In this document: piece after piece, positions 5,093 to 40,468 of the stretch | How positions within the stretch are numbered: the first letter of the stretch is position 1 | Layout: each line of letters opens with the position of its first letter | Virus record (IMG/VR): IMGVR_UViG_3300045988_129344 | Origin: a virus | DNA length: 40,863 nucleotides | Direction: 5' to 3' (one strand) | Notes under the pieces: generated by a model | Told to the model about the DNA's origin: nothing | The model's input: only the letters and a program-made list of their open reading frames with translations | Databases searched by the model: none | Position numbers and translations under genes: made by a program

Positions 5093-5449
5093 ATGGCTAA
5101 CAGTGAAATCAGAAGAAAAGCAAAAGAAAACGGGGTGCATTTATGGCGAATAGCTGACGCGCTCGGAATTACTGACGGTAATTTCTCAAGAAAATTAAGA
5201 AAAGAATTAGCGGAGGCGGAAAAGGAGCAGATATTCAAAATAATTGATGATTTAAAAAAACAGCCCATAAGAAAAAATAATTTAATAACTGGTGGCGGGG
5301 ATAGTTGCGGTGAAGATGTTGTCGCATGCACCTGCGACGAATGCGGTGAACCTATATGTGTAGGCGAAAAATACTACGAAATCGTAGATATAATTATCTG
5401 CGAAAACTGTATAGAAAAATTTGCGAAGATAGGAGAGTTAAACAGATGA
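5093..5449 (+). CDS. Putative DNA-binding protein with a C-terminal Cys-cluster (zinc-ribbon-like)
   Basis: The N-terminal segment HLWRIADALGITDGNFSRKLR is HTH-like. The C-terminal segment is CTCDECGEPIC...CENC. Confidence 0.55.
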   Translation: MANSEIRRKAKENGVHLWRIADALGITDGNFSRKLRKELAEAEKEQIFKIIDDLKKQPIRKNNLITGGGDSCGEDVVACTCDECGEPICVGEKYYEIVDIIICENCIEKFAKIGELNR

Positions 5450-5922
5450 ACATATATGAAATAGACAATGCAATGTTTTCTTTAATTGACGAAGAAACGG
5501 GCGAAATAAAGGACTTTGAAGCATTTGAAGAACTACAAATGCAAAAGGAAGAAAAAATCGAAAATGCGGCACTATGGCACAAGAATTTAATAGCTGAAAG
5601 CAAAGCTATCCGAGAAGAAGAAAAAGCGCTTGCGGAGCGCCGTAAGTCGTTGGAAAACAAAGCTGAAAGTTTGAAGAATTTCGTAAATAGAACATTGAAC
5701 GGTAACAAGTTCAGTACATCAAAAGTTGCTATAAGTTACAGAAAATCAACGGCGGTAGAAGTTGATGATGAATTTATTGATTATGCAATGAAGAACAACA
5801 ACGACCTGTTGACATATAAGCAACCTGAGCCAAACAAAACGGTCATCAAGGGAATGTTGCAGGGTGGTTTTGATATTCCACACGCAGAGTTGGTAGAGAG
5901 AAACAATATGAGTATAAAATAA
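5446..5922 (+). CDS. Siphovirus Gp157-family protein
   Basis: MNIYEIDNAMFSLIDEETGEI...coiled coil...SISYRKS pattern. It sits upstream of a Sak4-like ATPase and a DUF669 gene, which is the known conserved triad. ATG at 5446 overlaps the previous stop. Confidence 0.7.
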   Translation: MNIYEIDNAMFSLIDEETGEIKDFEAFEELQMQKEEKIENAALWHKNLIAESKAIREEEKALAERRKSLENKAESLKNFVNRTLNGNKFSTSKVAISYRKSTAVEVDDEFIDYAMKNNNDLLTYKQPEPNKTVIKGMLQGGFDIPHAELVERNNMSIK

Positions 5923-16733: not shown

Positions 16734-18076
16734 TAATTGATGAAGATATAGTTGCGGGCGGTGTGACACCGTTCATCATAACAAAATTGATTGAACGGCA
16801 CGAACGAGAGCGACAGAGATACCGATTGTTACACGATTACTATATGGGCGACCACCGTATTTTAAATCGCAGAAAAAGGGGCAAAAACGTGGCAAACAAC
16901 CGTATAATGTGTAATCACGCAAAGTACATAACGGATATGACGCAAAGTTATTTGGTTGGCAATCCTGTAACATATGCAGTGTCGGACGATTACGACATTG
17001 AGGCAATCAAAAACGCATATTTGGAACAGGACATTCCGAGTGTGGACAGCGAGATTGTGAAAAATATGAGTATTTACGGCAGGGCGTACGAGTTGATATA
17101 TGCGGACGAAAACAGCAAGCCGAGAAGTGTACGATTGGATCCGGAGCATACATTTGTATGTTACTCACAGTCGGCATTTGAAAAGCCGTTGTTTGCGGTG
17201 TATTACTACAAGAAATACGACCTTGACGGCTACTGCACAGGCAGTATTTGTCGTGTGTATGACGAATCGTTTATATATACATACACAGGTCTTGACAGCT
17301 ATACGGCGTTGTCATTGCAAAATGTTGAACCGCATTACTTTTTTGATGTTCCGATTATCGAATACAGAAATAATACGGAAATGCAGGGCGATTTTGAACA
17401 GCTTATAACGCAGATTGACGCATACAACGTGTTGATGTCAGATAGAATTAATGACAAAGAGCAATTTGTTAATTCGCTGTTGTTTTTGTGCAACTGCGAC
17501 CTTGACACCGAACAGGCAAAAAAATTATTGGTAGAACGTATCTTAATGGGTGACGGTGACGCAAAGGCGGAGTATCTGTCAAAGGTGCTGAACGAGGCTG
17601 ATACAAAGGTGTTGCGTGACGACATCAAGGACGATATACACCGTTTGTCACACGTTCCTGATTTGTCGGACGAAAGTTTCGGCAATAATTTGTCGGGCGT
17701 GGCGATAAAGTATAAGCTGTTGGGATTTGAACAGCACGTCAAGAACAAAGAACGTAATTTTGCTAAGACGTTGAGAAAACGTTTGGAGATTTACAACAAT
17801 TTCTTAGTGACATTAAACGCAATGAAAGAAGTGCCGTCGCACAGAGTTGATATAGGATTTACATATAACTTGCCTGCAAACGAACTTGAAATAGCACAGA
17901 TGATTAATTACCTCAAAGGTCTTGCGTCTGACGAAACACTTTTAGAGCGTCTGCCGTTTATAACAGACGCAAAGGAAGAAGTTGAAATCGCACGCAGAGA
18001 ACAGGCTGAAAAGTCCGCCGAAGATATGCGTATCGCTGAAAGTTCGGCAAGGAAAGTAAACTACAATGAAGAGTAA
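16730..18076 (+). CDS. Portal protein (SPP1 gp6-like)
   Basis: 448 aa immediately after TerL. The N-terminal YYMGDHRILNR...NNRIMCNHAKYITDMTQSYLVGNPVTY pattern fits. Confidence 0.9.
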   Translation: MIIDEDIVAGGVTPFIITKLIERHERERQRYRLLHDYYMGDHRILNRRKRGKNVANNRIMCNHAKYITDMTQSYLVGNPVTYAVSDDYDIEAIKNAYLEQDIPSVDSEIVKNMSIYGRAYELIYADENSKPRSVRLDPEHTFVCYSQSAFEKPLFAVYYYKKYDLDGYCTGSICRVYDESFIYTYTGLDSYTALSLQNVEPHYFFDVPIIEYRNNTEMQGDFEQLITQIDAYNVLMSDRINDKEQFVNSLLFLCNCDLDTEQAKKLLVERILMGDGDAKAEYLSKVLNEADTKVLRDDIKDDIHRLSHVPDLSDESFGNNLSGVAIKYKLLGFEQHVKNKERNFAKTLRKRLEIYNNFLVTLNAMKEVPSHRVDIGFTYNLPANELEIAQMINYLKGLASDETLLERLPFITDAKEEVEIARREQAEKSAEDMRIAESSARKVNYNEE

Positions 18077-19568
18077 GGCATATTGGGTAAAACGTGCCGT
18101 TGAAGTTGAAACATATTTGCAATCGCAAGCGGACAGCGTTAAGGACGGTGTAATTAAGGCGTATGAGCGAGCAATCAAAAATGTAAACAATGACATTGAG
18201 AAAACGTTCAAAGCCTATATTTCGACCGATATACCCGAAAAAGAGGCACGCCGATTAATGAGCATAGCCGACAGCGACAAACAGTACGAAGAACTTCTTG
18301 AACTGTATGCCGAAACAGACGACAAGACAGTCAAAAAAGAAATTCTAAACCGTATAAATGCACAGGCATACGGTGCGAGAATTAGCCGATTAGAGGGACT
18401 GAAACGGAATGTATATATTTACTTTAGGCGCGTTGCAAACGAGGCTATAAAGGAGCAAAAGAAACTGTATGACAGTGCGGTAAAGACGGCGTATTATACG
18501 AATATTTTTGATACCGCACAAGGTTTAAACTGCGGTATTGATTTTCCACTTGTACCGCAAAAGGCGGTTAATAAAGTGTTAAGTGAGCCGTGGCACGGTC
18601 ACAACTACAGCGAGAGAGTGTGGATACATAACGACAGATTTATACAGGCAGTCGGACAGACGATTGAGGACGGTATAATCAGCGGTCACAGTGTAAGCCG
18701 TATGACCGATAAGCTGATTGATTACGTCAAAGATACTGCACCGGGTGGAATACGAACATCAGCCGAAACACTTGTGCGAAGTGAAACGGCACATTTTATG
18801 AACCAAGGTCAGAGAATGGCATATGAGGAAATCGGCATAAAACAGTATCGTTTTGTTGCGGCACTGTCTGAATTGACGTGTGACAGGTGCGGAAGTCTTG
18901 ACGGTAGCGTGTTTGATACGGATAAAGCCGTTGAGGGCGAAAACTTCCCACCGATACACCCACGTTGCCGTTGTGTTACGATTATGGCAGACGTGAATTT
19001 GACAAGTCGTATTGCACGCGATCCGCTCACTGGCGAAAATTACAAAGTTGACGGTGGTATGACGTTTGACGAATGGAAAAGCGGTTTGACAGATGAGCAA
19101 AGAAATGCGTTAAAATATGTTGCAAATAGTGAAAAACGTGGTATAATAGAGATGAAAAGAAAAAAGAACGATAATAAATCAGAAACTATGCCCAAAAAGC
19201 AACTTCAAAAAATAATTAAAAGGTTTAAGAAGTTGGGAGGAACTATTCAAATGAGCGAGGAAACGGATAAATATTTGGATAGTAAATTTGCAGAAGCAAT
19301 TACATATGATGCGCATACAATTTTATTACGTCAAAAACCTAGTCGTGCCAGTGTATTTGAAGAGCTTATACATTCCGCTCAATATGGAACGGGGAAAAAT
19401 GATGGAAGTTATATTAGTCGATTAAAGTGTGAAATAGAGGCACAAGAGAAATTACTAAGATACCAAAAAGCATACAGACTTACTAAAATTGAGGTCGAAC
19501 AAACAGAAAAGGCTTTAAATGATTACAAAAATGAATTAAAACTATACTATAAAAAAGGCGGTGTGTGA
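18066..19568 (+). CDS. MuF/SPP1 gp7-like head morphogenesis protein with a C-terminal extension of about 150 aa of unknown function
   Basis: MuF hallmark FPPIHPRCRCVTIM near residue 300. The C-terminal part, from about nt 19100, is visibly AT-richer and contains EELIHSAQ (19359-19382). Confidence 0.85.
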   Translation: MKSKAYWVKRAVEVETYLQSQADSVKDGVIKAYERAIKNVNNDIEKTFKAYISTDIPEKEARRLMSIADSDKQYEELLELYAETDDKTVKKEILNRINAQAYGARISRLEGLKRNVYIYFRRVANEAIKEQKKLYDSAVKTAYYTNIFDTAQGLNCGIDFPLVPQKAVNKVLSEPWHGHNYSERVWIHNDRFIQAVGQTIEDGIISGHSVSRMTDKLIDYVKDTAPGGIRTSAETLVRSETAHFMNQGQRMAYEEIGIKQYRFVAALSELTCDRCGSLDGSVFDTDKAVEGENFPPIHPRCRCVTIMADVNLTSRIARDPLTGENYKVDGGMTFDEWKSGLTDEQRNALKYVANSEKRGIIEMKRKKNDNKSETMPKKQLQKIIKRFKKLGGTIQMSEETDKYLDSKFAEAITYDAHTILLRQKPSRASVFEELIHSAQYGTGKNDGSYISRLKCEIEAQEKLLRYQKAYRLTKIEVEQTEKALNDYKNELKLYYKKGGV

Positions 19569-19569
19569 T

Positions 19570-19797
19570 ATGGATATAATAAATTCATTGAAAATTGGAC
19601 AAAATATATCGGTACAAATCAATGACAACGGTATAAACTTAAAAAATGGGGGATATGTTGCAGATGAAAACGGAAACCGCTTTAAAATATTATCAGTAGC
19701 GATGATAAATAATCATAAACGATTAATTGATAGTAATGCAGAGTTATTGTTGGCGGGAGATGTTAATAATATCGGAAAAAAATTATATACGATATGA
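19570..19797 (+). CDS. Small protein (75 aa), candidate cognate/immunity partner of the MuF C-terminal domain
   Basis: The ATG lies 1 nt after the MuF stop. The gene has the same AT-rich composition and is followed by a terminator. Confidence 0.5.
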   Translation: MDIINSLKIGQNISVQINDNGINLKNGGYVADENGNRFKILSVAMINNHKRLIDSNAELLLAGDVNNIGKKLYTI

Positions 19798-19846
19798 TTT
19801 AATGAAAAAGAGTGTGTAAGAAAAAACTAAATATAAATTAAATATT

Positions 19847-19875
19847 AAAAGCACGTTTGCAGACGTGCTTTTTTG
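19847..19875 (+). terminator. Rho-independent terminator
   Basis: aaaagcacgt / acgtgctttt stem with a 6-nt loop and a T-run. Confidence 0.8.
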
Positions 19876-20024
19876 ATATTCAAATTTATTGAAAGGCGGT
19901 GATAGTGTGAGAGTAGGCACAACATACACATAGAAGAAAGGAATGGTGATCCGATTATCTCCCTGTTAGACGTGGGGTTATACGTCTTATTTTTATACAA
20001 TTTTTTAAGAAAGGAATGATTTGA

Positions 20025-20561
20025 ATGGCAGAGCCAACACCAAATCCATCAAAAACAACGGAGCCAACACCTCCGACACCTCCGACACCTCCGGAGCCTC
20101 CCGCACCGAATAACGGCGACAATCAAAAGGCGATTGATGACGCAGTAGCGGCGGCAAAAGAGAAGTGGGAAAAGGAACTTGAGCAAAAGCTAAAGGACGC
20201 TGAAAACGAGGGCATGAGAAAAGCCAAGTTGACAAACGAGCAAAGAAAAAAAGAGGACGACGACAAGGAACGAGCAGAATTTGAAAAGGCAAAGGCAGAG
20301 TTTGAACGTGAAAAAATCGTTGCATATGCCGAAACAGAACTTGCCAAAGTCGGATTGTCTGCCGAGATTGCAAAGTACATTGTAGTAGAGGACAAGGATA
20401 GCACAAAGGCGGTTATTGACAAGATAAAAGAAAGCTATGACAAAGATGTACAAGCAGGTGTTACCGAGCGTTTAAAGGGCAAAACACCGGATTTAAACGG
20501 TGGCAGTGGCGGTCACAACACAGGCAGTTTTATGGACATAATCAGAGAAAATCAAAGATAG
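20025..20561 (+). CDS. Capsid scaffolding protein (DUF4355-like)
   Basis: Pro/Thr-rich N-terminus, highly charged coiled coil, then VGLSAEIAKYIVVEDKDSTKAVIDKIKESYDKDV. It sits upstream of the capsid gene. Confidence 0.85.
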   Translation: MAEPTPNPSKTTEPTPPTPPTPPEPPAPNNGDNQKAIDDAVAAAKEKWEKELEQKLKDAENEGMRKAKLTNEQRKKEDDDKERAEFEKAKAEFEREKIVAYAETELAKVGLSAEIAKYIVVEDKDSTKAVIDKIKESYDKDVQAGVTERLKGKTPDLNGGSGGHNTGSFMDIIRENQR

Positions 20562-20572
20562 GAGTGAAATAA

Positions 20573-21724
20573 ATGGGTTATTTAAAAAATGAATTGACAG
20601 GATTTGTACCTGTCGAGCAAGCAACAGAAATCATCAAAATGGTGACAAGGGGTTCAAGTGTTTTAAGAATGGCGAAAGTCGAGGAAATGAAACACGAGAA
20701 AAAGAAGTTTAACGTACTTACAGACGGTCCGGGTGCTTACTGGGTCGGTGAGGGTGAAAGAATTAAGACAAGCGGTGCTACTTGGATTCACCCTGAAATC
20801 GAGGCGAAGAAGTTAGCCGTTATTATTCCGGTAACAAAGGAAAAGTTGGAAGATCCGACTATCAGCGTATTTGAAGAACTAAAGCCGGAAATTGCAGAGG
20901 CATTCTACAGAGCGATTGACGCGGCGTGCATTTTCGGTACAAATTCGCCGTTCAAGACAAACATTATGAACGCTATAGACAGCAAGCATATGGTTGTTAC
21001 AGACAACACAAATATTGATATTGCTATATCTGACGCAATGTCAATGATTGAAGAAAACGGCTATGACCCGTCGGGATTTATCGGTCGTATCGGTGTTAAG
21101 AATATGCTGAGAAAATTGCGTGACGCAAACGGCGCACCTGCATATGTCAACGGTACAACAGGTGGTGAGTTGTACGGTCAGCCTATCGAATTTGTGCGCA
21201 ACGGTGCGTGGGACAACAAACGTGCCGATATTATCACAGGTAACTTCAAGTATGCCGTTGTCGGTATGCGTGCAGGTATCAATTACGAAATTCTTACCGA
21301 GGCTACACTACAAGGCACTCTTGACAGTGACGGTAAACCGCTATCACTTGCGGAGCAGGATATGGTTGCAATCAAAGCTACTATGCGTTTAGGTTTCCTT
21401 GTGGTTAAGGACGACGCATTTGCCGCATTTAAGAACGGTGTTCCGACACTTGGCGAATTGACAGTTGAATCGGTTGCAGGAACAACAGGCAACACTGTTA
21501 TTACAGTATCGCCAAAGCCTATCGGCGGTCACAAGTTGGTTTACAAGACTGTCGCAAGCACCGCTCCAAGTGTTGCGTATGACGACGATTTGTCGAAGTG
21601 GACAGAGTTTAACAACGGTGACGAAATCACTGCGACAAACGGTCACAAGATTACAGTTGCGGAAGTTACCGCAGACGGCAAAGCGAGAAAGTCGGGCAGT
21701 GCCGACGTTGTAAGCGGTGAATAA
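20573..21724 (+). CDS. Major capsid protein (HK97 fold) with a C-terminal Ig-like extension
   Basis: GQPIEFVRNGAWDNKRADIITGNFKYAVVGMRAGINYEILTEA...AIKATMRLGFLV fits the Phage_capsid pattern. The last 85 aa or so are beta-rich (LTVESVAGTTGNTVITVSP...). Confidence 0.9.
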   Translation: MGYLKNELTGFVPVEQATEIIKMVTRGSSVLRMAKVEEMKHEKKKFNVLTDGPGAYWVGEGERIKTSGATWIHPEIEAKKLAVIIPVTKEKLEDPTISVFEELKPEIAEAFYRAIDAACIFGTNSPFKTNIMNAIDSKHMVVTDNTNIDIAISDAMSMIEENGYDPSGFIGRIGVKNMLRKLRDANGAPAYVNGTTGGELYGQPIEFVRNGAWDNKRADIITGNFKYAVVGMRAGINYEILTEATLQGTLDSDGKPLSLAEQDMVAIKATMRLGFLVVKDDAFAAFKNGVPTLGELTVESVAGTTGNTVITVSPKPIGGHKLVYKTVASTAPSVAYDDDLSKWTEFNNGDEITATNGHKITVAEVTADGKARKSGSADVVSGE

Positions 21725-21725
21725 T

Positions 21726-22079
21726 ATGGAACAGTTGGGGACACTAAAAATGTTGTTGGGAATTAAGGACGACGAGCAAGACAGCTTGTTGTCCTTTTTG
21801 ATTGAGGACACGGTTAATATGATTATGGCGTATTGTCATATTGATGTACTGCCACGTCAGCTTGAAAGCCTTGTTCCGAAGATTGCGGCGGATATGTACA
21901 GGGCGAAAGGTTACGGGGACAGTAAAAGTCCCGAAGTAGTCAAGAGCAGAAGTGAGGGCGAACGTTCCGTCACATATGCCGAAACCGACAATGACAAGAT
22001 TTTCAGCAACTATTATAAACGCCTTGACCCGTTCCGAAAACGAAAGGGGCGTGTTCCGAGTGACATCAGTATTCAGTGA
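21726..22079 (+). CDS. Head-tail connector (gp6-like)
   Basis: LKMLLGIKDDEQDSLLSFLIEDTVNMIMAYCHID is typical of Phage_connect_1. Confidence 0.8.
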   Translation: MEQLGTLKMLLGIKDDEQDSLLSFLIEDTVNMIMAYCHIDVLPRQLESLVPKIAADMYRAKGYGDSKSPEVVKSRSEGERSVTYAETDNDKIFSNYYKRLDPFRKRKGRVPSDISIQ

Positions 22080-23813: not shown

Positions 23814-23819
23814 GACAAG

Positions 23820-23843
23820 GCACGCCGAAAGGCGTGCTTTTTT
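23820..23843 (+). terminator. Rho-independent terminator/attenuator after the major tail gene
   Basis: gcacgcc-gaaa-ggcgtgc stem followed by TTTTTT. Confidence 0.75.
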
Positions 23844-32070: not shown

Positions 32071-32625
32071 ATGAAAGGGAATATTAAAAGTTTTATATGC
32101 GGTATGCTCGTTATGGGTATTATATCGTGTGCAGGAGTATACGCAACCGACGTGTGGCAGAATATAAATGTTTTACCGAATACAATAAAAGTTGTGGTAG
32201 ACGGTAAAGCGGTACAAGCCGACAATTTCCTATACAACGATACAACATACTTGCCGATAAGGGCGGTAAGTGAAGCGTTGGGAAAAGACGTACAATATGA
32301 TACACAAACAAGCACCGCCACAATATCAGAAAAGAAAGAAGATGATAATATGGCAGTTACAAGTAAATACACGCCACCGACAGAATATATAAACGACTCT
32401 GCTTTCATTACTCAAAAAGACGGGGTATATTATGCTTTGATTAATTTTGTGGCGACCAAAATTCAAGACGCAGGATATAAATTTGAATACGACTACGATA
32501 CAAAAACATTTAAAGCCGTAAGCGGCGATAATGTGATTTATATAGGCAAAACAACAGTTATGGACTCTGACGAAGTTATCCCATACGACCAATTTGTAGA
32601 CGAGATACAGCCGTTGTTGAAATAA
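32071..32625 (+). CDS. Secreted/membrane-anchored protein with a copper-amine-oxidase-N-terminal-like domain
   Basis: Signal/TM segment FICGMLVMGIISCAGVYA. IKVVVDGKAVQADNFLYNDTTYLPIRAVSEALGKDVQYD matches the Cu_amine_oxidN1 pattern. RBS AAAGGAGG. Confidence 0.7.
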   Translation: MKGNIKSFICGMLVMGIISCAGVYATDVWQNINVLPNTIKVVVDGKAVQADNFLYNDTTYLPIRAVSEALGKDVQYDTQTSTATISEKKEDDNMAVTSKYTPPTEYINDSAFITQKDGVYYALINFVATKIQDAGYKFEYDYDTKTFKAVSGDNVIYIGKTTVMDSDEVIPYDQFVDEIQPLLK

Positions 32626-32640
32626 GAAAGGGGATTTACA

Positions 32641-32997
32641 ATGATATGGCAACAAGAAGTGTTGGATAAAATAGTATCGAAAATTAAGCCCTTTTCGGAT
32701 TCAGCTAAAAAGTACAAAGCAAATGAAGAAGAAAAGCTTTTTATAGAAAATCTTGCAAGAGAAATGCTTAATAAAAATGCTTTACAACATTTGAAAATTG
32801 ACAGACGTTCAAACGGATTGTTAAATTTTAAATATAAGAATATGCAGATTGGACGAATAAATTTAAGGTCTAAGCCGACACAACTACAAATCATATCACA
32901 GTATGATGTACGTTGGTTAGAAGGACTTTATGTAAGGGAATGTATAAGAAAAATTCCCGAGTGGATGGAATACTTAGATTATTTGATGAATAAATAG
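32641..32997 (+). CDS. Hypothetical protein (118 aa)
   Basis: ORF with AAGGGGA RBS. AT-rich. No motif recognised. Confidence 0.55.
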   Translation: MIWQQEVLDKIVSKIKPFSDSAKKYKANEEEKLFIENLAREMLNKNALQHLKIDRRSNGLLNFKYKNMQIGRINLRSKPTQLQIISQYDVRWLEGLYVRECIRKIPEWMEYLDYLMNK

Positions 32998-33032
32998 CAC
33001 AAAGACACCTCATTATGGGGTGTCTTTTGTGT
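32997..33032. terminator. Bidirectional terminator between convergent genes
   Basis: cacaaagacacc / ggtgtcttttgtg long stem (33001-33009 pairs with 33019-33027), followed by T-rich sequence. Confidence 0.75.
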
Positions 33033-33035
33033 TGG

Positions 33036-33608
33036 CTAATTAGATAGCTTGTGAGTAACCTCACTGACTTTCCAATTGATTGTAAGTTCATAATGCTTTG
33101 TTAAATTGAATTTACCTACAATTGAATCGTTAAGTATTTTATTAGATACATCAATAAAAAATGGTCTGGAAAGTTGGTTGAGTACCTTTAATGCATCTAA
33201 TGTTTCCTCATCTTTTGCTTGATGAATAGTTAACTCATATAAAGTAACTTTATCCTTGGATAGTAAGAGTCCTTTTGGTCTTAAAGAAGCCGCAAACGTA
33301 CAATAATATTCTTCTGATACACCTTTTTTTAAATGAAAAGTTAAAAAACCATATTCTTCTGCCTTTATGGTTTCCTCATAGGTAGAAAAATCTATTCCAT
33401 ATAGTTCTATAGGAGTATAATCAATTAGTTGCGTAGGAGTTACATTCAAATATCTACATAGTTTATCCAATGTATCGAACTGAATGCCTTTGCAATTATT
33501 TTGGGATAAAGCTGTAAGTGTAGTTCGTGAAATACCGGTATCATGAGCTACTTTTGTTATTTTAATGTTGTTTTCAGCAAGAATAATTGATAGATTACAT
33601 CTAATCAT
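33036..33608 (-). CDS. XRE/HTH_26 (YozG-like) regulator with a C-terminal domain of about 125 aa of unknown function (Mnt-analogue candidate)
   Basis: MIRCNLSIILAENNIKITKVAHDTGISRTTLTALSQNNCKGIQFDTLDKLCRYLNVTPTQLIDY. ATG at 33608 after GGAGG. Confidence 0.75.
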   Translation of the reverse strand: MIRCNLSIILAENNIKITKVAHDTGISRTTLTALSQNNCKGIQFDTLDKLCRYLNVTPTQLIDYTPIELYGIDFSTYEETIKAEEYGFLTFHLKKGVSEEYYCTFAASLRPKGLLLSKDKVTLYELTIHQAKDEETLDALKVLNQLSRPFFIDVSNKILNDSIVGKFNLTKHYELTINWKVSEVTHKLSN

Positions 33609-33630
33609 AATAAAACCTCCTTTCATAATA

Positions 33631-33659
33631 ATTGTACAATACACTGTTCATTTTGTCAA
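33631..33659 (-). promoter_or_regulatory. Leftward promoter of the long HTH gene
   Basis: The minus strand reads TTGACA (33659-33654), 17-nt spacer, TACAAT (33636-33631). A TGTTCA box at 33645-33650 lies in the spacer. Confidence 0.6.
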
Positions 33660-33697
33660 GTTTTTAGAAAAAAATAATAAAAATATTAAAAAAAGTA

Positions 33698-33759
33698 TTG
33701 ACATTTAATTAATAGGAATGTATAATAGAAATAGATTTTGAACAAAAGTCTGAACAAAA
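33698..33759 (+). promoter_or_regulatory. Consensus rightward promoter plus two TGAACAAAA boxes
   Basis: TTGACA (33698-33703), 17-nt spacer, TATAAT (33721-33726). TGAACAAAA at 33739-33747 and 33751-33759. Confidence 0.7.
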
Positions 33760-33780
33760 ATCAAAAAAAAACGAAAGGAT

Positions 33781-33993
33781 GTGGTAAAATTGGACAACAA
33801 CTTATCGCAAATCTTAGGCGAAAAACTTATTAAGATTTCGCAAGTTTCAAAAGATACTGGAATTTCAAGGTCTACGTTGACAAACCTGTATTATAAACGT
33901 AGTAAAGCTATTTCGGGTAATGTATTACACAAATTGTGTGATTATCTTGATTGCAGTGTTGGAGATTTGTTGGAAAAGAAAACAAAAAAATAA
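33781..33993 (+). CDS. Small XRE/HTH_26 regulator (Arc-analogue candidate)
   Basis: ISQVSKDTGISRSTLTNLYYKRSKAISGNVLHKLCDYLDCSVGDLL is paralogous to the N-terminal domain of the divergent gene. The start is uncertain (GTG 33781 or TTG 33790). Confidence 0.75.
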   Translation: MVKLDNNLSQILGEKLIKISQVSKDTGISRSTLTNLYYKRSKAISGNVLHKLCDYLDCSVGDLLEKKTKK

Positions 33994-35325: not shown

Positions 35326-37422
35326 ATGAAATTAAATTTTAATTTTAGCGGTAAAACGCTGTTAAAGGATTGGTGGAAGATTGTTCGTGATAATTTCACG
35401 GCAATTCAAACCGAGCATAACACACTGTCCAACAAATTGGATACAGAAATAACGCAACGCACTAACGCTGATGTAGGTTTGGCGGACAAAATCACTGCCG
35501 AAACCAAGGTGAGGGAAAGTGCGGATAGTTCGTTAAACAGTCGTATAAACAACGAAGTGACAATACGACAGGCGGCGGATAATGAACTGCAACGTAATAT
35601 TGACAGTGAAATCACCGAAAGGCAGACGGCAGATACCAATATTTCAAATTCAGTGAAAGCCGAAGAATCAGCAAGAAAAAGTGCTGACAAAGAATTGAAA
35701 GCACGTATTGATGAAATCAATGCGAACACCGAAACAACTATACTGTTTGGCGACAAAAAGCAACATACAGTAAAATTTGTTGCACCGAGTAAGCCTACAC
35801 TATATTTTGACGGACAACAAGAATATTATGGCGAGAGTATGGCGGTTGATATTACACTGAAAGACGCGTTTTACATTGACGGGAAACAGATTGCCGGAAC
35901 GTTTTCAGAACCGTGTATAAATGTACCAATAGACGGCATTTATATTGTTGTTCGCTATGATTTTATTAAAAATACGTGTAGTATATCATCAAATTCTACA
36001 TCTGTACCGTCGGCAATTTCGGGTGATGTATGGACATTTACATTGTATCATATTCACGATATAAATTTAGAAATGAAGATAGACAGCGAATCGCCGACAG
36101 GGGAAAGATATGAGTTTGTATCGGCGACGGTTGATTATGTCATAGAAAACGAAAATACCACAGGCGACAGTTATTTCATCACCAATACATACGAACGTGT
36201 TCGTACATTGGCAGATTTGGCAACTGTCAATAAAAATTCATTTATTGACGCTGTAAATGAAAATGCAAAAAATATTACAGATATAACAAAAAATCAAATA
36301 TTTGTGCAATGCGACGGCGACCACGACGAATTAAAATTACAGGCGGCGATAGATAGCGCGCCGTATAAAAGTATTATATATCCTGTAGGTGAATTGTGCG
36401 TTATTACAAATGCAAATATGAAGTCGGGTTACGGAATGACGGGAACTAATAACGGTGTGGCAATTCCGTTAAAGGGCGGTATGACGTTAGACGGTTCAAT
36501 GTGCGATACAATTATGTTCAAAAATACAAATTCTGTCGCAAAACAATATGTTTTTCATCTGCCGGAAGGCGCTAAAATGCAAAATGTAAAATTTACAGAG
36601 GACACGGACACTGTAACGGCGGACACGGTTAATCCGACAGTATTATTAGCGCAAAGTAGTTCACAGATAATATCCTGTACATTCTACGATATATTTAGTA
36701 CACATCAATTCGGTGTATCAACGTTTGAAATGAGCAACGTTCTGTTTTTGAACAACGTCATAGATACGTTCGCAGGTGCACCGGCAAATAATTTGACATA
36801 CGAAATAAAAATCGCAGGCAATTCGTTTGTTATGGGTAACAAATTTTTGAATTTCACGCAAAAAGAACAATCGTTAGGATATATGCTACAGGCGTCAACC
36901 GTTATATTTGTAAACAATTATATGTCCGGTTTTACAAATTGCAGTATTGATATAGGCAAAAAAATAGTAGGCAATATATTTAAAACGTTTACTGATTGCA
37001 GTATCGATATAAATGGCGAAATTTCGGACAATGAATTTGCAGCAATTACACAGAACACAAAAACACCGTTTATATACACCAAGGGGATTACATTAATCAG
37101 CGGAAACAGAATGCCTGTTATAAAAATTAATTCCGAATATATCGATTTTATCGAATGCGGAAATTATGCCGTTATATGCGGAAATTATATGCACATTTCC
37201 GCAGGCCCTACGTCGGGACAGTGTAATCTAATATCAGCCAGCAGTCAGACGCTGATAGCAGATAATATATTTAGGACAACGGCGTCTGTAACGGCAAATG
37301 CTGATTTTTCAATTATATACAGCGACGGTAAAACAGTAGTCAAAAATAACGTGACAAATGCCGTATCAATCGGAACGTTCGGCGATACGTGCGTTGTTGA
37401 CGGAAATGTGACAGGGTGGTGA
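35326..37422 (+). CDS. Tail fibre / receptor-binding protein (N-terminal repeat coiled coil, C-terminal beta-helix-like repeats)
   Basis: Five E..R..AD..L repeats between residues about 40 and 125. The C-terminal region carries periodic GN/DN motifs (ISGNRMPV, ICGNYMHI, IADNIFRT, VKNNVTN, VDGNVTGW). Confidence 0.7.
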   Translation: MKLNFNFSGKTLLKDWWKIVRDNFTAIQTEHNTLSNKLDTEITQRTNADVGLADKITAETKVRESADSSLNSRINNEVTIRQAADNELQRNIDSEITERQTADTNISNSVKAEESARKSADKELKARIDEINANTETTILFGDKKQHTVKFVAPSKPTLYFDGQQEYYGESMAVDITLKDAFYIDGKQIAGTFSEPCINVPIDGIYIVVRYDFIKNTCSISSNSTSVPSAISGDVWTFTLYHIHDINLEMKIDSESPTGERYEFVSATVDYVIENENTTGDSYFITNTYERVRTLADLATVNKNSFIDAVNENAKNITDITKNQIFVQCDGDHDELKLQAAIDSAPYKSIIYPVGELCVITNANMKSGYGMTGTNNGVAIPLKGGMTLDGSMCDTIMFKNTNSVAKQYVFHLPEGAKMQNVKFTEDTDTVTADTVNPTVLLAQSSSQIISCTFYDIFSTHQFGVSTFEMSNVLFLNNVIDTFAGAPANNLTYEIKIAGNSFVMGNKFLNFTQKEQSLGYMLQASTVIFVNNYMSGFTNCSIDIGKKIVGNIFKTFTDCSIDINGEISDNEFAAITQNTKTPFIYTKGITLISGNRMPVIKINSEYIDFIECGNYAVICGNYMHISAGPTSGQCNLISASSQTLIADNIFRTTASVTANADFSIIYSDGKTVVKNNVTNAVSIGTFGDTCVVDGNVTGW

Positions 37423-38338: not shown

Positions 38339-39130
38339 ATGGATATTCAAATCAAACAGGGTCCGCAGTGCCACCCGTCCAACTGTTATACATATAGGAA
38401 TGACGATATTTTATTTATCGTCATTCATTTTACAGGTAATAACGGTGACACGGCGCTAAATAACTGTACATTTTTCAGCGGTGAAAATCGCAAGGCGTCG
38501 GCAAATTATTTTTCGGGAAATGACGGTATTTATCAATCTGTTCCTGATAATTGGGCGGCGTGGGCTGTCGGCGGTACAAAAAATTACAAACACCCGTATT
38601 GTAGGAATATGAACAGTATTTCAATAGAAATGTGTAGCCGCATTGGTGCAGACGGTAAATATTATATCGATGATGACGTGGTGGAACAGACAATTAAATT
38701 AACAAAATATTTGATGAATAAATACGGTGTGCCGGCACAGAATGTACTGCGTCATTATGACGTGTGGGACAAACAATGTCCTGAACCGTTTGTGCGTAAA
38801 CCGGAACTATGGCAAGATTTTAAAAATAAATTAAGTGAAAGTGAGGGACTGACAATGGAGCAGTACAATGAATTAAAATCATTAATCACGAAACAGGCGG
38901 CAGAAATAAATGATTTGCGTAATGTAAATCAACAGTTGGTAAACGTAGTCCAAACGACTATGATTTATAATTATGTTGATGACAATATGCCCGATTGGGC
39001 AAGACCGGCAGTACAGGCGGCTATGGACTGTGGTGCGATCCAAGGGGATGAACAGGGTAGATTGGGACTGTCATATAAAGACTTAAGGGCAATTTGTAGA
39101 GAGTACAGATGTGGTATGTATAATAAGTAG
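38339..39130 (+). CDS. Endolysin, N-acetylmuramoyl-L-alanine amidase (Amidase_2) with a C-terminal wall-binding region
   Basis: IVIHFTGN...ASANYFSGNDGIYQSVPD...NSISIEMC...RHYDVWDKQCPEPF. Confidence 0.9.
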   Translation: MDIQIKQGPQCHPSNCYTYRNDDILFIVIHFTGNNGDTALNNCTFFSGENRKASANYFSGNDGIYQSVPDNWAAWAVGGTKNYKHPYCRNMNSISIEMCSRIGADGKYYIDDDVVEQTIKLTKYLMNKYGVPAQNVLRHYDVWDKQCPEPFVRKPELWQDFKNKLSESEGLTMEQYNELKSLITKQAAEINDLRNVNQQLVNVVQTTMIYNYVDDNMPDWARPAVQAAMDCGAIQGDEQGRLGLSYKDLRAICREYRCGMYNK

Positions 39131-39136
39131 CTTTGA

Positions 39137-39165
39137 GGGTGGTGTAATGCCACCCTTATTTTTTG
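39137..39165 (+). terminator. Rho-independent terminator after the lysis cassette
   Basis: agggtgg / ccaccct stem followed by T-rich sequence. Confidence 0.75.
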
Positions 39166-39295
39166 ACAAAAAATAATGGAGCTTATAGAAATTACGGTGA
39201 AAAATATTCTTCAAGTGGCATAAAGCAAGCCGCAAGAAAGAAAGCAAACGAAAAGTTTGAAAAGCTGTTTACAGAAAAAGTTGAATAGATGGAAA

Positions 39296-39328
39296 AAAGA
39301 CAGAAAATTCGCATTTTCTGTCTTTTTT
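39296..39328 (+). terminator. Strong rho-independent terminator
   Basis: aaagacagaaaat-tcgc-attttctgtcttt 13-bp stem followed by a T-run. Confidence 0.8.
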
Positions 39329-39427
39329 GTGGAAATAAACATATTTTAATGATTAAATTTGTGTATAATGTGAATTAAATGGGGTATGGTTTTATGATAC
39401 AATATAAACGAAGAGGAGGATATATAA

Positions 39428-40468
39428 ATGTGGAAAAAAATAGAGTTTAAAGGAAAGAATAAAAAAAAAGAGAACAGTTTAAAGAATGAATATGAAAAAG
39501 AGAGTATTTTAGAAAAAGGACACAAAAAAAATATACATGGACGTGCAATTAGTGCGACAATTATTGGTATACTATTATTAATAATAAATTTTTTTGTAGG
39601 AATTGAAGGGCGAAGAAGAGGAGGAACAGTTGAAAATGTAGTAGAATGTATTAGTACAGCAATAAATAGTGTTGTAAGTATAATACTTGGTTTAGGTGTA
39701 GGATCACTCGTATTAGATTTTTTTAGCTACATTGAATACACTCAAGAAAAAATCAAAGATGTAATGATAACAAAAGATTATTTGAATACTATTTCAAATG
39801 ATGAAAAACGAGCATTAATAAAAAAGTTACAGTCGTCATTGTATTTCAAAAGCGAAAATATCCCTGAAGATAGTTTGTATACAAGAATACACGATAAAAT
39901 ATTGCCGTTGATGGATAAAGAATATTTAGAAAAATATTCTTTACATATTGATTGTAGTATACAAGAAAGTAAAATAGTGAAGAATATGTATCATGAATTA
40001 ATTATATATTCAAAGCATGCGAAAAAATTCATATTGCCATTCGCTATATATATAAAGAAGAGTGATACTGTAGAGGATAGTTATATAGTTAATGAGTTGG
40101 AGTTTAATGGTGAAAAGCAAACATATACCTGCGATAAGCCTGATGAGGATTATGAAGATGGAGAAGTAAAAAGATATTCTATAACTTATGAATTTGATTT
40201 AAAACAAGGATTAAATTCAATTAAGTATCAAAGTAATAGTGTAGTAGATATAAAAGATGAAGAATATGCGCATAGAGTATCAATTCCAACAAAACATTAT
40301 TCTGCAGAAATTGCATGGGATAACGATGACTATCGTATAGAGGGCTATGGATTTGCGTTAGATAACAAAAGTATAATATCTAAAAACTATAATAAAATGT
40401 GTAAAATAGAAGTTGATGATTGGCTATTGCCAGGAGAAGGTTGTATCTTTACAATAAATAAAAGATAG
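39428..40468 (+). CDS. AT-rich cargo gene encoding a 2-TM membrane protein with a C-terminal domain of about 245 aa of unknown function
   Basis: Lys-rich N-tail. TM1 AISATIIGILLLIINFFVGI. TM2 AINSVVSIILGLGVGSLVLDFF. RBS GAGGAGGA. A TATAAT at about 39366 lies upstream. Confidence 0.7.
   Translation: MWKKIEFKGKNKKKENSLKNEYEKESILEKGHKKNIHGRAISATIIGILLLIINFFVGIEGRRRGGTVENVVECISTAINSVVSIILGLGVGSLVLDFFSYIEYTQEKIKDVMITKDYLNTISNDEKRALIKKLQSSLYFKSENIPEDSLYTRIHDKILPLMDKEYLEKYSLHIDCSIQESKIVKNMYHELIIYSKHAKKFILPFAIYIKKSDTVEDSYIVNELEFNGEKQTYTCDKPDEDYEDGEVKRYSITYEFDLKQGLNSIKYQSNSVVDIKDEEYAHRVSIPTKHYSAEIAWDNDDYRIEGYGFALDNKSIISKNYNKMCKIEVDDWLLPGEGCIFTINKR

Follow-up and report, generated by a model that had tools for sequence, protein, structure and literature searches.

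A probable MuF-type polymorphic toxin locus with a Tox-MPTase4-like domain and a putative immunity gene in a temperate phage of gut Clostridia

Phage morons and the constitutive immunity promoters of nuclease colicin operons provide precedents for a unit of distinct composition, bounded by a promoter and a terminator, within a late operon, and for immunity expression that is uncoupled from toxin induction. MuF toxins, by which temperate phages have been proposed, with hardly any tests so far, to arm or police their hosts, possess an N-terminal MuF domain and are encoded in the head/packaging module of temperate phages (Jamet et al. 2017, PMC5576092; Apk2/IapK, PMC12226406). Those described by Jamet et al. 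(2017) additionally have a variable C-terminal toxin domain common to other toxin families and a short open reading frame (ORF) immediately 3' of the toxin gene. MuF proteins are thought to be present at 2-3 copies per head and to bind DNA, and the MuF toxins for which experimental data are given there are (p)ppApp synthetases, not peptidases (PMC12226406). A second relevant family, Tox-MPTase4, was defined by the motifs F[DN], [RK] and HExxH in proteins delivered by type II, VI and VII secretion systems (T2SS, T6SS and T7SS), and no immunity protein was listed for it (Zhang et al. 2012, PMC3482391). In Escherichia coli, Rhs-CT1 and Rhs-CT2 are listed as metallopeptidase effectors, and the antibacterial activity of CT1 as a T6SS effector is reported to have been determined by experiment (reviewed in PMC6099711). 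Finally, internal promoters shown experimentally in Salmonella rhs genes turn the C-terminal toxin domain, with its immunity gene, into a type II toxin-antitoxin module, and the authors of that study ask whether other toxin families do likewise (Starsta et al. 2020, PMC7043789). Here, we describe the 3' end of the MuF gene in the virus record IMGVR_UViG_3300045988_129344, a stretch of 40,863 nucleotides that we refer to in full as the window.

The window belongs to a temperate siphophage of gut Clostridia, and the locus is probably a variant of the MuF polymorphic toxin in which an EExxH form of Tox-MPTase4 is fixed and is accompanied by a dedicated, unannotated family of putative immunity proteins. 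We estimate the probability at roughly 75% that a MuF-type polymorphic toxin locus has its variable 3' end here, encoding a toxin-like domain and its partner. The modular architecture, the exchange of the cassette, and the conservation of the partner and of putative active-site residues are established by sequence comparison. As in the described MuF toxins, the gene lies in the head/packaging module (terminases, portal, scaffold and capsid) of a phage encoding an integrase and a CI/S24 repressor. The EExxH motif, the beta-barrel partner, the promoter-like linker and the terminator boundary, by which the locus differs from the MuF toxins of Jamet et al. (2017), come from the present analysis; the text and supplements of that paper (PMC5576092) make no mention of MPTase, PF15640, a linker, recombination or a terminator, and neither its supplements nor those of Zhang et al. 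(2012) contain text on MPTase4. Coordinates are collected in Table 1; those that the first-pass annotation had given all proved correct.

By profile comparison, the MuF tail belongs to a divergent clade of the zincin-like family Tox-MPTase4 (PF15640). The window domain begins at M363, a residue in register with the start codon of free-standing homologues, and matches PF15640 at 22.2 bits (E = 1.4e-4) over positions 9-131 of the 132 in the profile; the profile is matched by 29 of 29 relatives (best E = 5.4e-8), with L018 reaching 27.6 bits. An exhaustive profile search for the family returned 759 representative clusters at 50% identity, 410 of them with E <= 1e-10. A canonical PF15640 member was recovered from the C-terminus of an E. 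coli PAAR-Rhs protein (117 bits), and hhalign aligned our family alignment, A1, to this C-terminus over 102 columns with 90% probability (E = 1.7e-6). The first-pass annotation had not been able to name the C-terminal domain; the matches among relatives and to the E. coli protein now supply the name. The window's clade shares with Tox-MPTase4 and E. coli PAAR-Rhs-CT1 its size, its C-terminal position, carriage by RHS proteins, an xExxHxxQ[YF] core and a conserved downstream Glu. It differs in having EExxH in place of the canonical HExxH (HEVIH in E. coli) and in being carried mostly by phage head proteins, in contrast to the T2SS, T6SS and T7SS delivery reported by Zhang et al. (2012).

The substitution in the putative metal site is a fixed property of this clade. 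E. coli HEVIHAKQF aligns opposite EELIHSAQY of the window, and EExxH is present in 250 of the 250 relatives that cover the motif, with HExxH in none, in a hidden Markov model (HMM) search that was not seeded with the motif. We argue for invariance solely from this unseeded search, because our scans for loci used FEELIH as the search pattern. EELIHSAQ (residues 432-439) had been pointed out in the first-pass annotation, correctly, as a motif with Glu in place of the first His; what it understated is that the replacement is a trait of the whole clade. Local decay of an HExxH site was considered as an explanation and rejected, since EExxH is fixed across the clade. Residues E91, E92, H95, Q98 and E115 (A1 numbering) do not vary among hundreds of clusters from several phyla, and other signature positions of Tox-MPTase4, [FY]D (ITYD) and R (SRAS), are also present in the clade. 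As judged from these alignments, the putative active-site residues are under selection. In an AlphaFold2 model of the domain, with a predicted local distance difference test score (pLDDT) above 90 over query residues 30-159, three strands precede the helix that carries EELIH, and this is followed by a further helix (108-124) with the invariant Glu E115. A fold search of BFVD returned another family member together with weak matches to SprT-like or peptidase proteins (E >= 0.14). The domain would most likely act as a metal-dependent peptidase.

A coupled downstream ORF accompanies this domain almost wherever we find it. In the window the MuF stop codon (TGA, 19566-19568) is followed after 1 nucleotide by the ATG of the partner gene, which encodes 75 residues, as the first-pass annotation had correctly read it; MuF polymorphic toxins are typified by an ORF of fewer than 150 codons immediately 3', and this is such an ORF. 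An ORF of 55-125 codons lies within a few nucleotides of the toxin stop in 89 of 93 distinct domains, most commonly at +1 or +2, and in the remaining 4 the partner is slightly further off or the contig ends. In 66 of these 89 partner ORFs a Shine-Dalgarno match of 5/6 or better lies just 5' of the chosen start, and the toxin domain ends in G-G-x in 50 of the 93 domains, where GGAGGT by inspection serves as the Shine-Dalgarno sequence of the partner. Close relatives of the 75-residue protein are found solely beside close relatives of the window cassette. The partner family recovered by profile search comprises about 100 clusters, mostly of 77 residues, and has no match in Pfam, PHROG, NCBIfam or PADLOC; a tblastn search of the small ORF against deposited phages likewise returned nothing. 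Partners behind RHS proteins and other distant copies were missed by the first profile, and hhalign joins this group to the family with 97% probability (E = 4.6e-11). Profile comparison thus places the coupled small ORFs in one remote family, whose members accompany the domain on all types of carrier and in all phyla that we examined.

Distances among toxin domains and among partners are correlated (Mantel r = 0.60, 0 of 2000 permutations, 68 distinct pairs), and the partner evolves faster, with a mean pairwise distance of 0.60 vs 0.41 for the toxin. Fast divergence is likewise reported for the binding-type immunity proteins of MuF toxins (PMC12226406). The modelled partner is a six-stranded beta-barrel (pLDDT 91.8) whose fold matches are generic, namely EF-Tu domain 2, the N-terminal domain of F1-ATPase and HerA barrels (E >= 0.067), with weak profile matches to EF-1alpha, EF-Tu and L24 (E >= 0.02). 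Mimicry of a translation factor was set aside as an explanation of the partner, its support being limited to fold class. The 83-residue protein encoded downstream of the E. coli Rhs-CT, the counterpart in the CT1/CTI1 pair, is unrelated to the beta-barrel partner (hhalign 0.3%); the EExxH clade therefore has a putative immunity family of its own.

The tail that carries this domain is not conserved together with the rest of the MuF protein. Conservation of extension and core without polymorphism, which the first-pass annotation had set against its own reading, is decisively contradicted by the comparison of orthologues. The 500-residue product matches the PHROG minor head protein family (E = 1e-77), and it begins, as MuF toxins do, with a Phage_Mu_F/SPP1 gp7 region, PF04233 matching residues 195-306 (E = 1.6e-15) and TIGR01641 residues 198-306 (E = 7e-21). 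The core thus stops at residue 306, after ...FPPIHPRCRCVTIM, where the first-pass annotation had ended it. We compared 73 MuF sequences with a complete tail, the window and 72 viral contigs, whose cores are 94-100% identical. These cores are followed by at least 12 unrelated tail types, the window's type accounting for 12 of the 73 sequences; most types part right after the linker KYVANSEKRGII, and a few earlier, after ...EQ(K/R)NAL. The variable segments for which both boundaries could be located are 730-1075 bp long with a fractional G+C (GC) content of 0.30-0.36 vs 0.43 in the core, and a tightly coupled ORF of 59-104 codons is present in most tail types. No Pfam match was obtained for 9 of 10 alternative tails, and the MuF 3' site is on that account a reservoir of unnamed toxin candidates. 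The at least 11 other payloads on near-identical cores (among them L128, L129, L162, L164, L166, L178, L181, L192 and L204) start after ...KYVANSEKRGII or ...NALE. Among these alternative tails we also noted metal-site-like motifs: HSHPx7SxxD, which is JAMM-like, in L128, HEIIGH in L129, HEFQH in L162, HEHGH in L181, and HEVTH in L178, the last with a weak DUF6782 match.

The window's tail, its small ORF and the terminator have moved between phages as a single block, as indicated by an alignment of 769 bp shared with L001. This block is 99.3% identical in the two phages (5 mismatches), identity collapses on both sides of it, and the MuF core of L001 is only about 33% identical to that of the window. 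GC content falls from 0.45-0.49 at 18500-19100 to 0.27-0.34 at 19100-19900 and recovers by 20000; over the block it is 0.296, against a window mean of 0.381, a value as low as which is reached by 4.2% of all 769-bp intervals. The first-pass annotation had described the 3' end of the MuF gene as compositionally foreign. This is so with respect to the head module, but the composition is not unique in the genome, because other low-GC islands exist.

The EExxH domain is found on several unrelated kinds of carrier, in accord with the polymorphic C-termini that MuF toxins have in common with other toxin families. It ends RHS-repeat proteins of Firmicutes, Nitrosospira and Verrucomicrobia (L054, L084 from Nitrosospira, and L088), many Phage_min_cap2 proteins and MuF proteins, and it also occurs as free-standing genes of 128-190 codons between housekeeping genes in Clostridia chromosomes. 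Its position is always C-terminal, the median number of residues behind the domain being 1. Together, tail swapping, lateral transfer, carrier diversity and the coupled partner strongly support the polymorphic-toxin/immunity layout that the first-pass annotation had proposed. Among deposited phages, tblastn of the domain found only two carriers: Streptococcus phage Javan570 (MK448986.1 17215-18781, L125), in which the head protein bearing the domain is followed by an overlapping ORF of 71 codons, and Lactobacillus prophage Lj928 (NC_005354.1 around 19434-19769), where the domain is also on a head protein. Head proteins of Ligilactobacillus salivarius megaplasmid prophages (H4-H14) carry it too, and all of these copies are annotated merely as hypothetical or as minor head or capsid proteins. 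One Phage_min_cap2 protein of 985 residues (L123:1451-4405) has an intein splicing domain (PF14890) in addition to the EExxH toxin domain.

The linker that precedes the domain appears to be constrained at the level of DNA, and is predicted to encode a near-consensus promoter. Free-standing copies have upstream of them TTGACA-N16-TGGTATAAT, then the Shine-Dalgarno sequence GTAGGAAGTGAA, then ATG; in fused copies the same signals, in frame, encode the linker peptide [V/I/L]-D-[K/N]-x-x-x-S-G-I-I-(E/K)-V-G-S-E...M. A TTGACA-like -35 box, a 16-17-nucleotide spacer and TGnTATAAT are present in 31 of 34 distinct linker DNAs, with fixed hexamers and a variable spacer sequence. When 29 loci scoring 11-13 were recoded synonymously according to local codon usage, the observed score was equalled in 0.5-8% of trials, most near 1%, and for the window type it was reached with p = 0.032. 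Additionally, the -35 box is kept in another reading frame, specifying other amino acids, in L062, L108, L022 and L080, and a second G-I-I motif (GGIIQ), which lies inside the domain, is encoded by mixed codons. The window's element starts 2 nucleotides inside the transferred block; its promoter-like score is the joint best between 15 and 24 kb, and it is the sole top-scoring match with an extended -10 TG.

The right boundary of the locus is formed by an intrinsic terminator that has an 11-pair stem and is unique in the window; its minimum free energy of -15.2 kcal/mol is equalled by 0 of 200 shuffles (z = -4.29). Its stem recurs behind most of the unrelated cassette types examined, with differences in the loop alone. 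The first-pass annotation had correctly pointed out the terminator, calling it clean; it is not specific to this cassette, however, and is a fixed boundary of the locus. The possibility that it was imported with the window's cassette was accordingly rejected, as most other cassette types end at the same hairpin. A second hairpin singled out by the same annotation, at 19968-19987, exists but does not exceed chance, as 28 of 200 shuffles fold equally well (z = -1.09). Between terminator and scaffold gene lies a conserved non-coding anchor, which has no excess RNA structure (z = +1.18); a search of Rfam with 19780-20040 gave sub-threshold noise only. The anchor may contain a late promoter or a signal for antitermination, either of which would account for transcription beyond the terminator. 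L001 has, between its terminator and the conserved anchor, an extra gene of 116 codons with no assigned function (5353-5703), which suggests a second insertion slot at the same locus.

These observations are consistent with the following course of events. In lytic growth the late operon would make the full-length MuF-toxin fusion, which would be packaged with the few copies of MuF in the head and enter the next cell with the DNA. The domain may then act on a cytoplasmic target as a metal-dependent hydrolase, most likely a peptidase; by eye, neither it nor the partner has an obvious signal sequence. In the producing cell and in lysogens the beta-barrel partner would bind and block the domain. 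Linker codons may double as a sigmaA-type promoter and, in most relatives, as the Shine-Dalgarno sequence and ATG of a free-standing gene. The linker promoter, toxin domain, immunity gene and conserved terminator would then form a self-contained unit, which would be autonomous within the late operon and could supply immunity, and possibly free toxin, from a silent prophage. The ends of the unit coincide with the junctions of exchange, and the conserved ends of the cassette may serve as homology anchors for replacement. Plausibly, then, linker and terminator together make the cassette self-expressing and exchangeable.

Our proposal for the linker goes further, and we hold it tentatively, at somewhat less than even odds. 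The linker would be dual-coding, a sigmaA promoter and at the same time the hinge of the MuF-toxin fusion, and in most relatives a ribosome-binding site and start codon as well. Combined with the conserved terminator it would render every cassette autonomous and lysogen-immunising, possibly addicting, and would provide two homology anchors for the capture and swapping of free-standing toxin-immunity genes. Salmonella rhs genes resemble this arrangement in having a promoter inside the coding sequence just 5' of the toxin domain, from which toxin and immunity could be expressed independently of the delivery portion. The element described here differs in that it is predicted and near-consensus, and in that phage head proteins translate it as part of a conserved linker; it also has a conserved terminator as its counterpart and falls at the junction of cassette exchange. 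Relative to morons, the window has the deviant GC content and the terminator, and its promoter is predicted, but unlike morons and colicin operons the unit continues the reading frame of a structural gene, MuF, and does not lie between genes. As regards type II toxin-antitoxin systems, the free-standing copies have consensus promoters and coupled genes, and no PADLOC match was obtained.

The locus belongs to an abundant lineage of human-gut and rumen Clostridia phages in which one site accepts at least 12 alternative payloads. Most of these match no Pfam family, and the window's payload is part of a family of 759 clusters with a putative Glu-for-His metal site. A promoter within the linker would answer how a prophage stays immune while its late genes are off, and how cassettes are swapped, and it would extend the finding of internal promoters beyond the Rhs toxins of Salmonella. 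The linker and terminator can also be used as landmarks for new toxin-immunity cassettes in phage genomes.

The free-standing copies raise the alternative that the pair is a toxin-antitoxin, addiction or abortive-infection module acting in the carrier cell, with the MuF fusion a by-product of insertion; a free protein of 138-142 residues and its partner, expressed from the internal promoter or one of their own, would stabilise the prophage or exclude other phages. In its favour, two-gene copies with strong promoters sit between housekeeping genes of Clostridia chromosomes, and the fused copies retain promoter, Shine-Dalgarno sequence and ATG in frame. We nevertheless consider this improbable. 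Dozens of divergent MuF and Phage_min_cap2 genes keep the linker open in frame, which is unexpected if the fusion is irrelevant; RHS toxins, themselves delivery proteins, end in this domain too; a single site with at least 12 alternative tails bears the signature of a diversifying inter-strain conflict; no PADLOC defence model is matched; and the window lineage is without a Shine-Dalgarno sequence for free toxin. The tail might instead be an injected anti-defence or host-takeover effector, akin to domains of phage polyvalent proteins, that cleaves a host defence or regulatory protein for the good of the phage and not in order to kill competitors, the partner being a chaperone or an inhibitor that holds it inactive until packaging. 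Polyvalent proteins of phages and of conjugative elements include MuF domains (PMC5512222), weak fold matches point to polyvalent-protein-associated and SprT-like protease models, and the presumed location of MuF proteins in the head and their DNA binding (PMC12226406) would suit injection. Those fold matches are not significant (E >= 0.14), however, and the domain and partner also occur on non-phage RHS toxins and as chromosomal pairs, where anti-defence makes little sense, so that we judge this reading quite unlikely, more so than an addiction module. Least credible of all is a catalytically dead pseudo-peptidase with a structural or assembly role in the head, next to a small ORF that would be a moron without relation to it. 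In the canonical motif it is indeed the first zinc ligand that is replaced, and a solved structure with this fold was not matched, but five putative active-site positions are invariant over hundreds of clusters in several phyla, near-identical phages carry unrelated tails instead, and the small ORF, coupled to the domain whatever the context, diverges along with it.

A further alternative concerns the promoter proposal only: linker DNA may be conserved as a recombination anchor or through recent common descent, and immunity may come from late or read-through transcripts. The linker is the exact site of cassette exchange, the loci are related, so that conservation could be inherited, and the window's -35 box agrees with consensus at 4/6 positions only. 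What makes this account rather unlikely is that fixation is confined to the two hexamers, the TG and the length of the spacer, whose sequence varies, that the -35 box survives in another frame with different amino acids at four loci, and that the element is the same in kind as the promoters of the free-standing copies. To return to the polymorphic toxin reading that we favour, several points weigh against it or against its parts. What is said here of toxicity, of neutralisation by the partner, of a packaged fusion, of metal binding and of promoter activity is inferred. The window's PF15640 score of 22.2 bits is below the Pfam gathering threshold of 25 bits, and its EELIH departs from the HExxH that defines the family. 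A Foldseek comparison of the domain model with the PDB, a check that the first-pass annotation had suggested, gave nothing significant (best E about 1), and a profile search against PDB sequences gave no match; with neither to draw on, the assignment of peptidase chemistry derives from remote sequence homology. Promoter-like matches in the region occur at chance frequency (22 found vs 20.2 expected), the linker promoter of the window has the 4/6 -35 box already mentioned, and the recoding probabilities of individual loci are not independent because the loci are phylogenetically related. The window lacks the Shine-Dalgarno part seen in relatives, the M363 ATG (19152) lying 4 nucleotides past the -10 box, and free toxin may for that reason not be made in this lineage; the immunity gene in the window has a Shine-Dalgarno sequence of its own. 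Finally, a strong terminator stands just 5' of the scaffold and capsid genes, and no sigma70-like promoter was found in 19887-20024.

Table 1. Features of the MuF locus and of related regions of the window
Feature	Coordinates	Strand	Evidence or remark
Toxin-like domain M363-V500 (138 residues), EExxH clade of Tox-MPTase4	19152-19568	+	PF15640, hhalign, AlphaFold2, alignment A1
Putative active-site motif E432-E433-L-I-H436-S-A-Q439	19359-19382	+	Invariant in A1; alignment to E. coli sequence
Invariant Glu456, candidate third metal ligand, on following helix	19431-19433	+	A1 E115; Glu also in E. coli Rhs-CT
Partner gene (75 residues; putative immunity protein), six-stranded beta-barrel, unannotated family	19570-19797	+	ORF, model, family search
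Shine-Dalgarno AAAGGCGGTG for small ORF, in the toxin's last codons K-G-G-V (GGCGGT)	19554-19563	+	Sequence
Pre-toxin linker K350-I361 (KYVANSEKRGII)	19113-19148	+	Junction of most tail types; block shared with L001 begins at 19118
Promoter-like element in linker codons, TTGCAA-N16-TGGTATAAT (TGgTATAAT)	19120-19147	+	Predicted internal promoter
Low-GC cassette block, 769 bp, shared with L001	19118-19886	+	DNA alignment
Intrinsic terminator, stem 19847-19872 and T-run	19847-19878	+	Scan; right boundary of variable locus
Conserved non-coding anchor TTGAAAGGCGGTGATAGTGTGAG... 5' of scaffold gene	19889-19965	+	Behind most cassette types and in L001; unique in window
Second hairpin, 7 pairs, 3 of them GC	19968-19987	+	Scan; not significant
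MuF/SPP1 gp7-type minor head protein gene (500 residues) with C-terminal toxin-like extension	18066-19568	+	ORF
Conserved MuF core domain, ending ...FPPIHPRCRCVTIM	18648-18983	+	Pfam and NCBIfam coordinates
Scaffold protein gene (DUF4355)	20025-20561	+	PF14265, E = 1e-18; first conserved gene 3' of variable locus
Tyrosine integrase	79-1104	minus	Lysogeny gene
CI-type helix-turn-helix/S24 repressor	1760-2437	minus	Lysogeny gene

In the remainder of the window the head module has the gene order small and large terminase, SPP1-type portal, MuF, DUF4355 scaffold and HK97-type capsid, and genes for a tape measure protein, a tail endopeptidase and an amidase lysin are also present. A megablast search of the locus against deposited phages gave no match. 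Strong terminator-like hairpins also occur at 21765-21796, after the major capsid gene, and at 23817-23840, within the head-tail connector genes; between 15 and 24 kb such sites are enriched (16 found vs 8.0 expected), and the late region may on this account be transcribed with programmed attenuation. Low-GC islands elsewhere in the window extend over 1-2850, 32350-33800 and 38750-40050, one of them covering the lysogeny module, and the lowest GC content, 0.257, is that of a 769-bp stretch beginning at 39246. The island at 38750-40050, which overlaps the amidase lysin and an ORF of 346 codons (39428-40468) with no Pfam match, may be a further accessory or moron-like region. Another ORF, of 698 codons (35326-37422), lies between a Bro-N protein gene and the lysis genes and likewise has no Pfam match. 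The major capsid protein (20573-21724) joins to its HK97-type Phage_capsid domain a C-terminal S-layer SbsC-like domain (PF18316, E = 2e-18), which by its profile match looks like a fused decoration or Ig-like domain.

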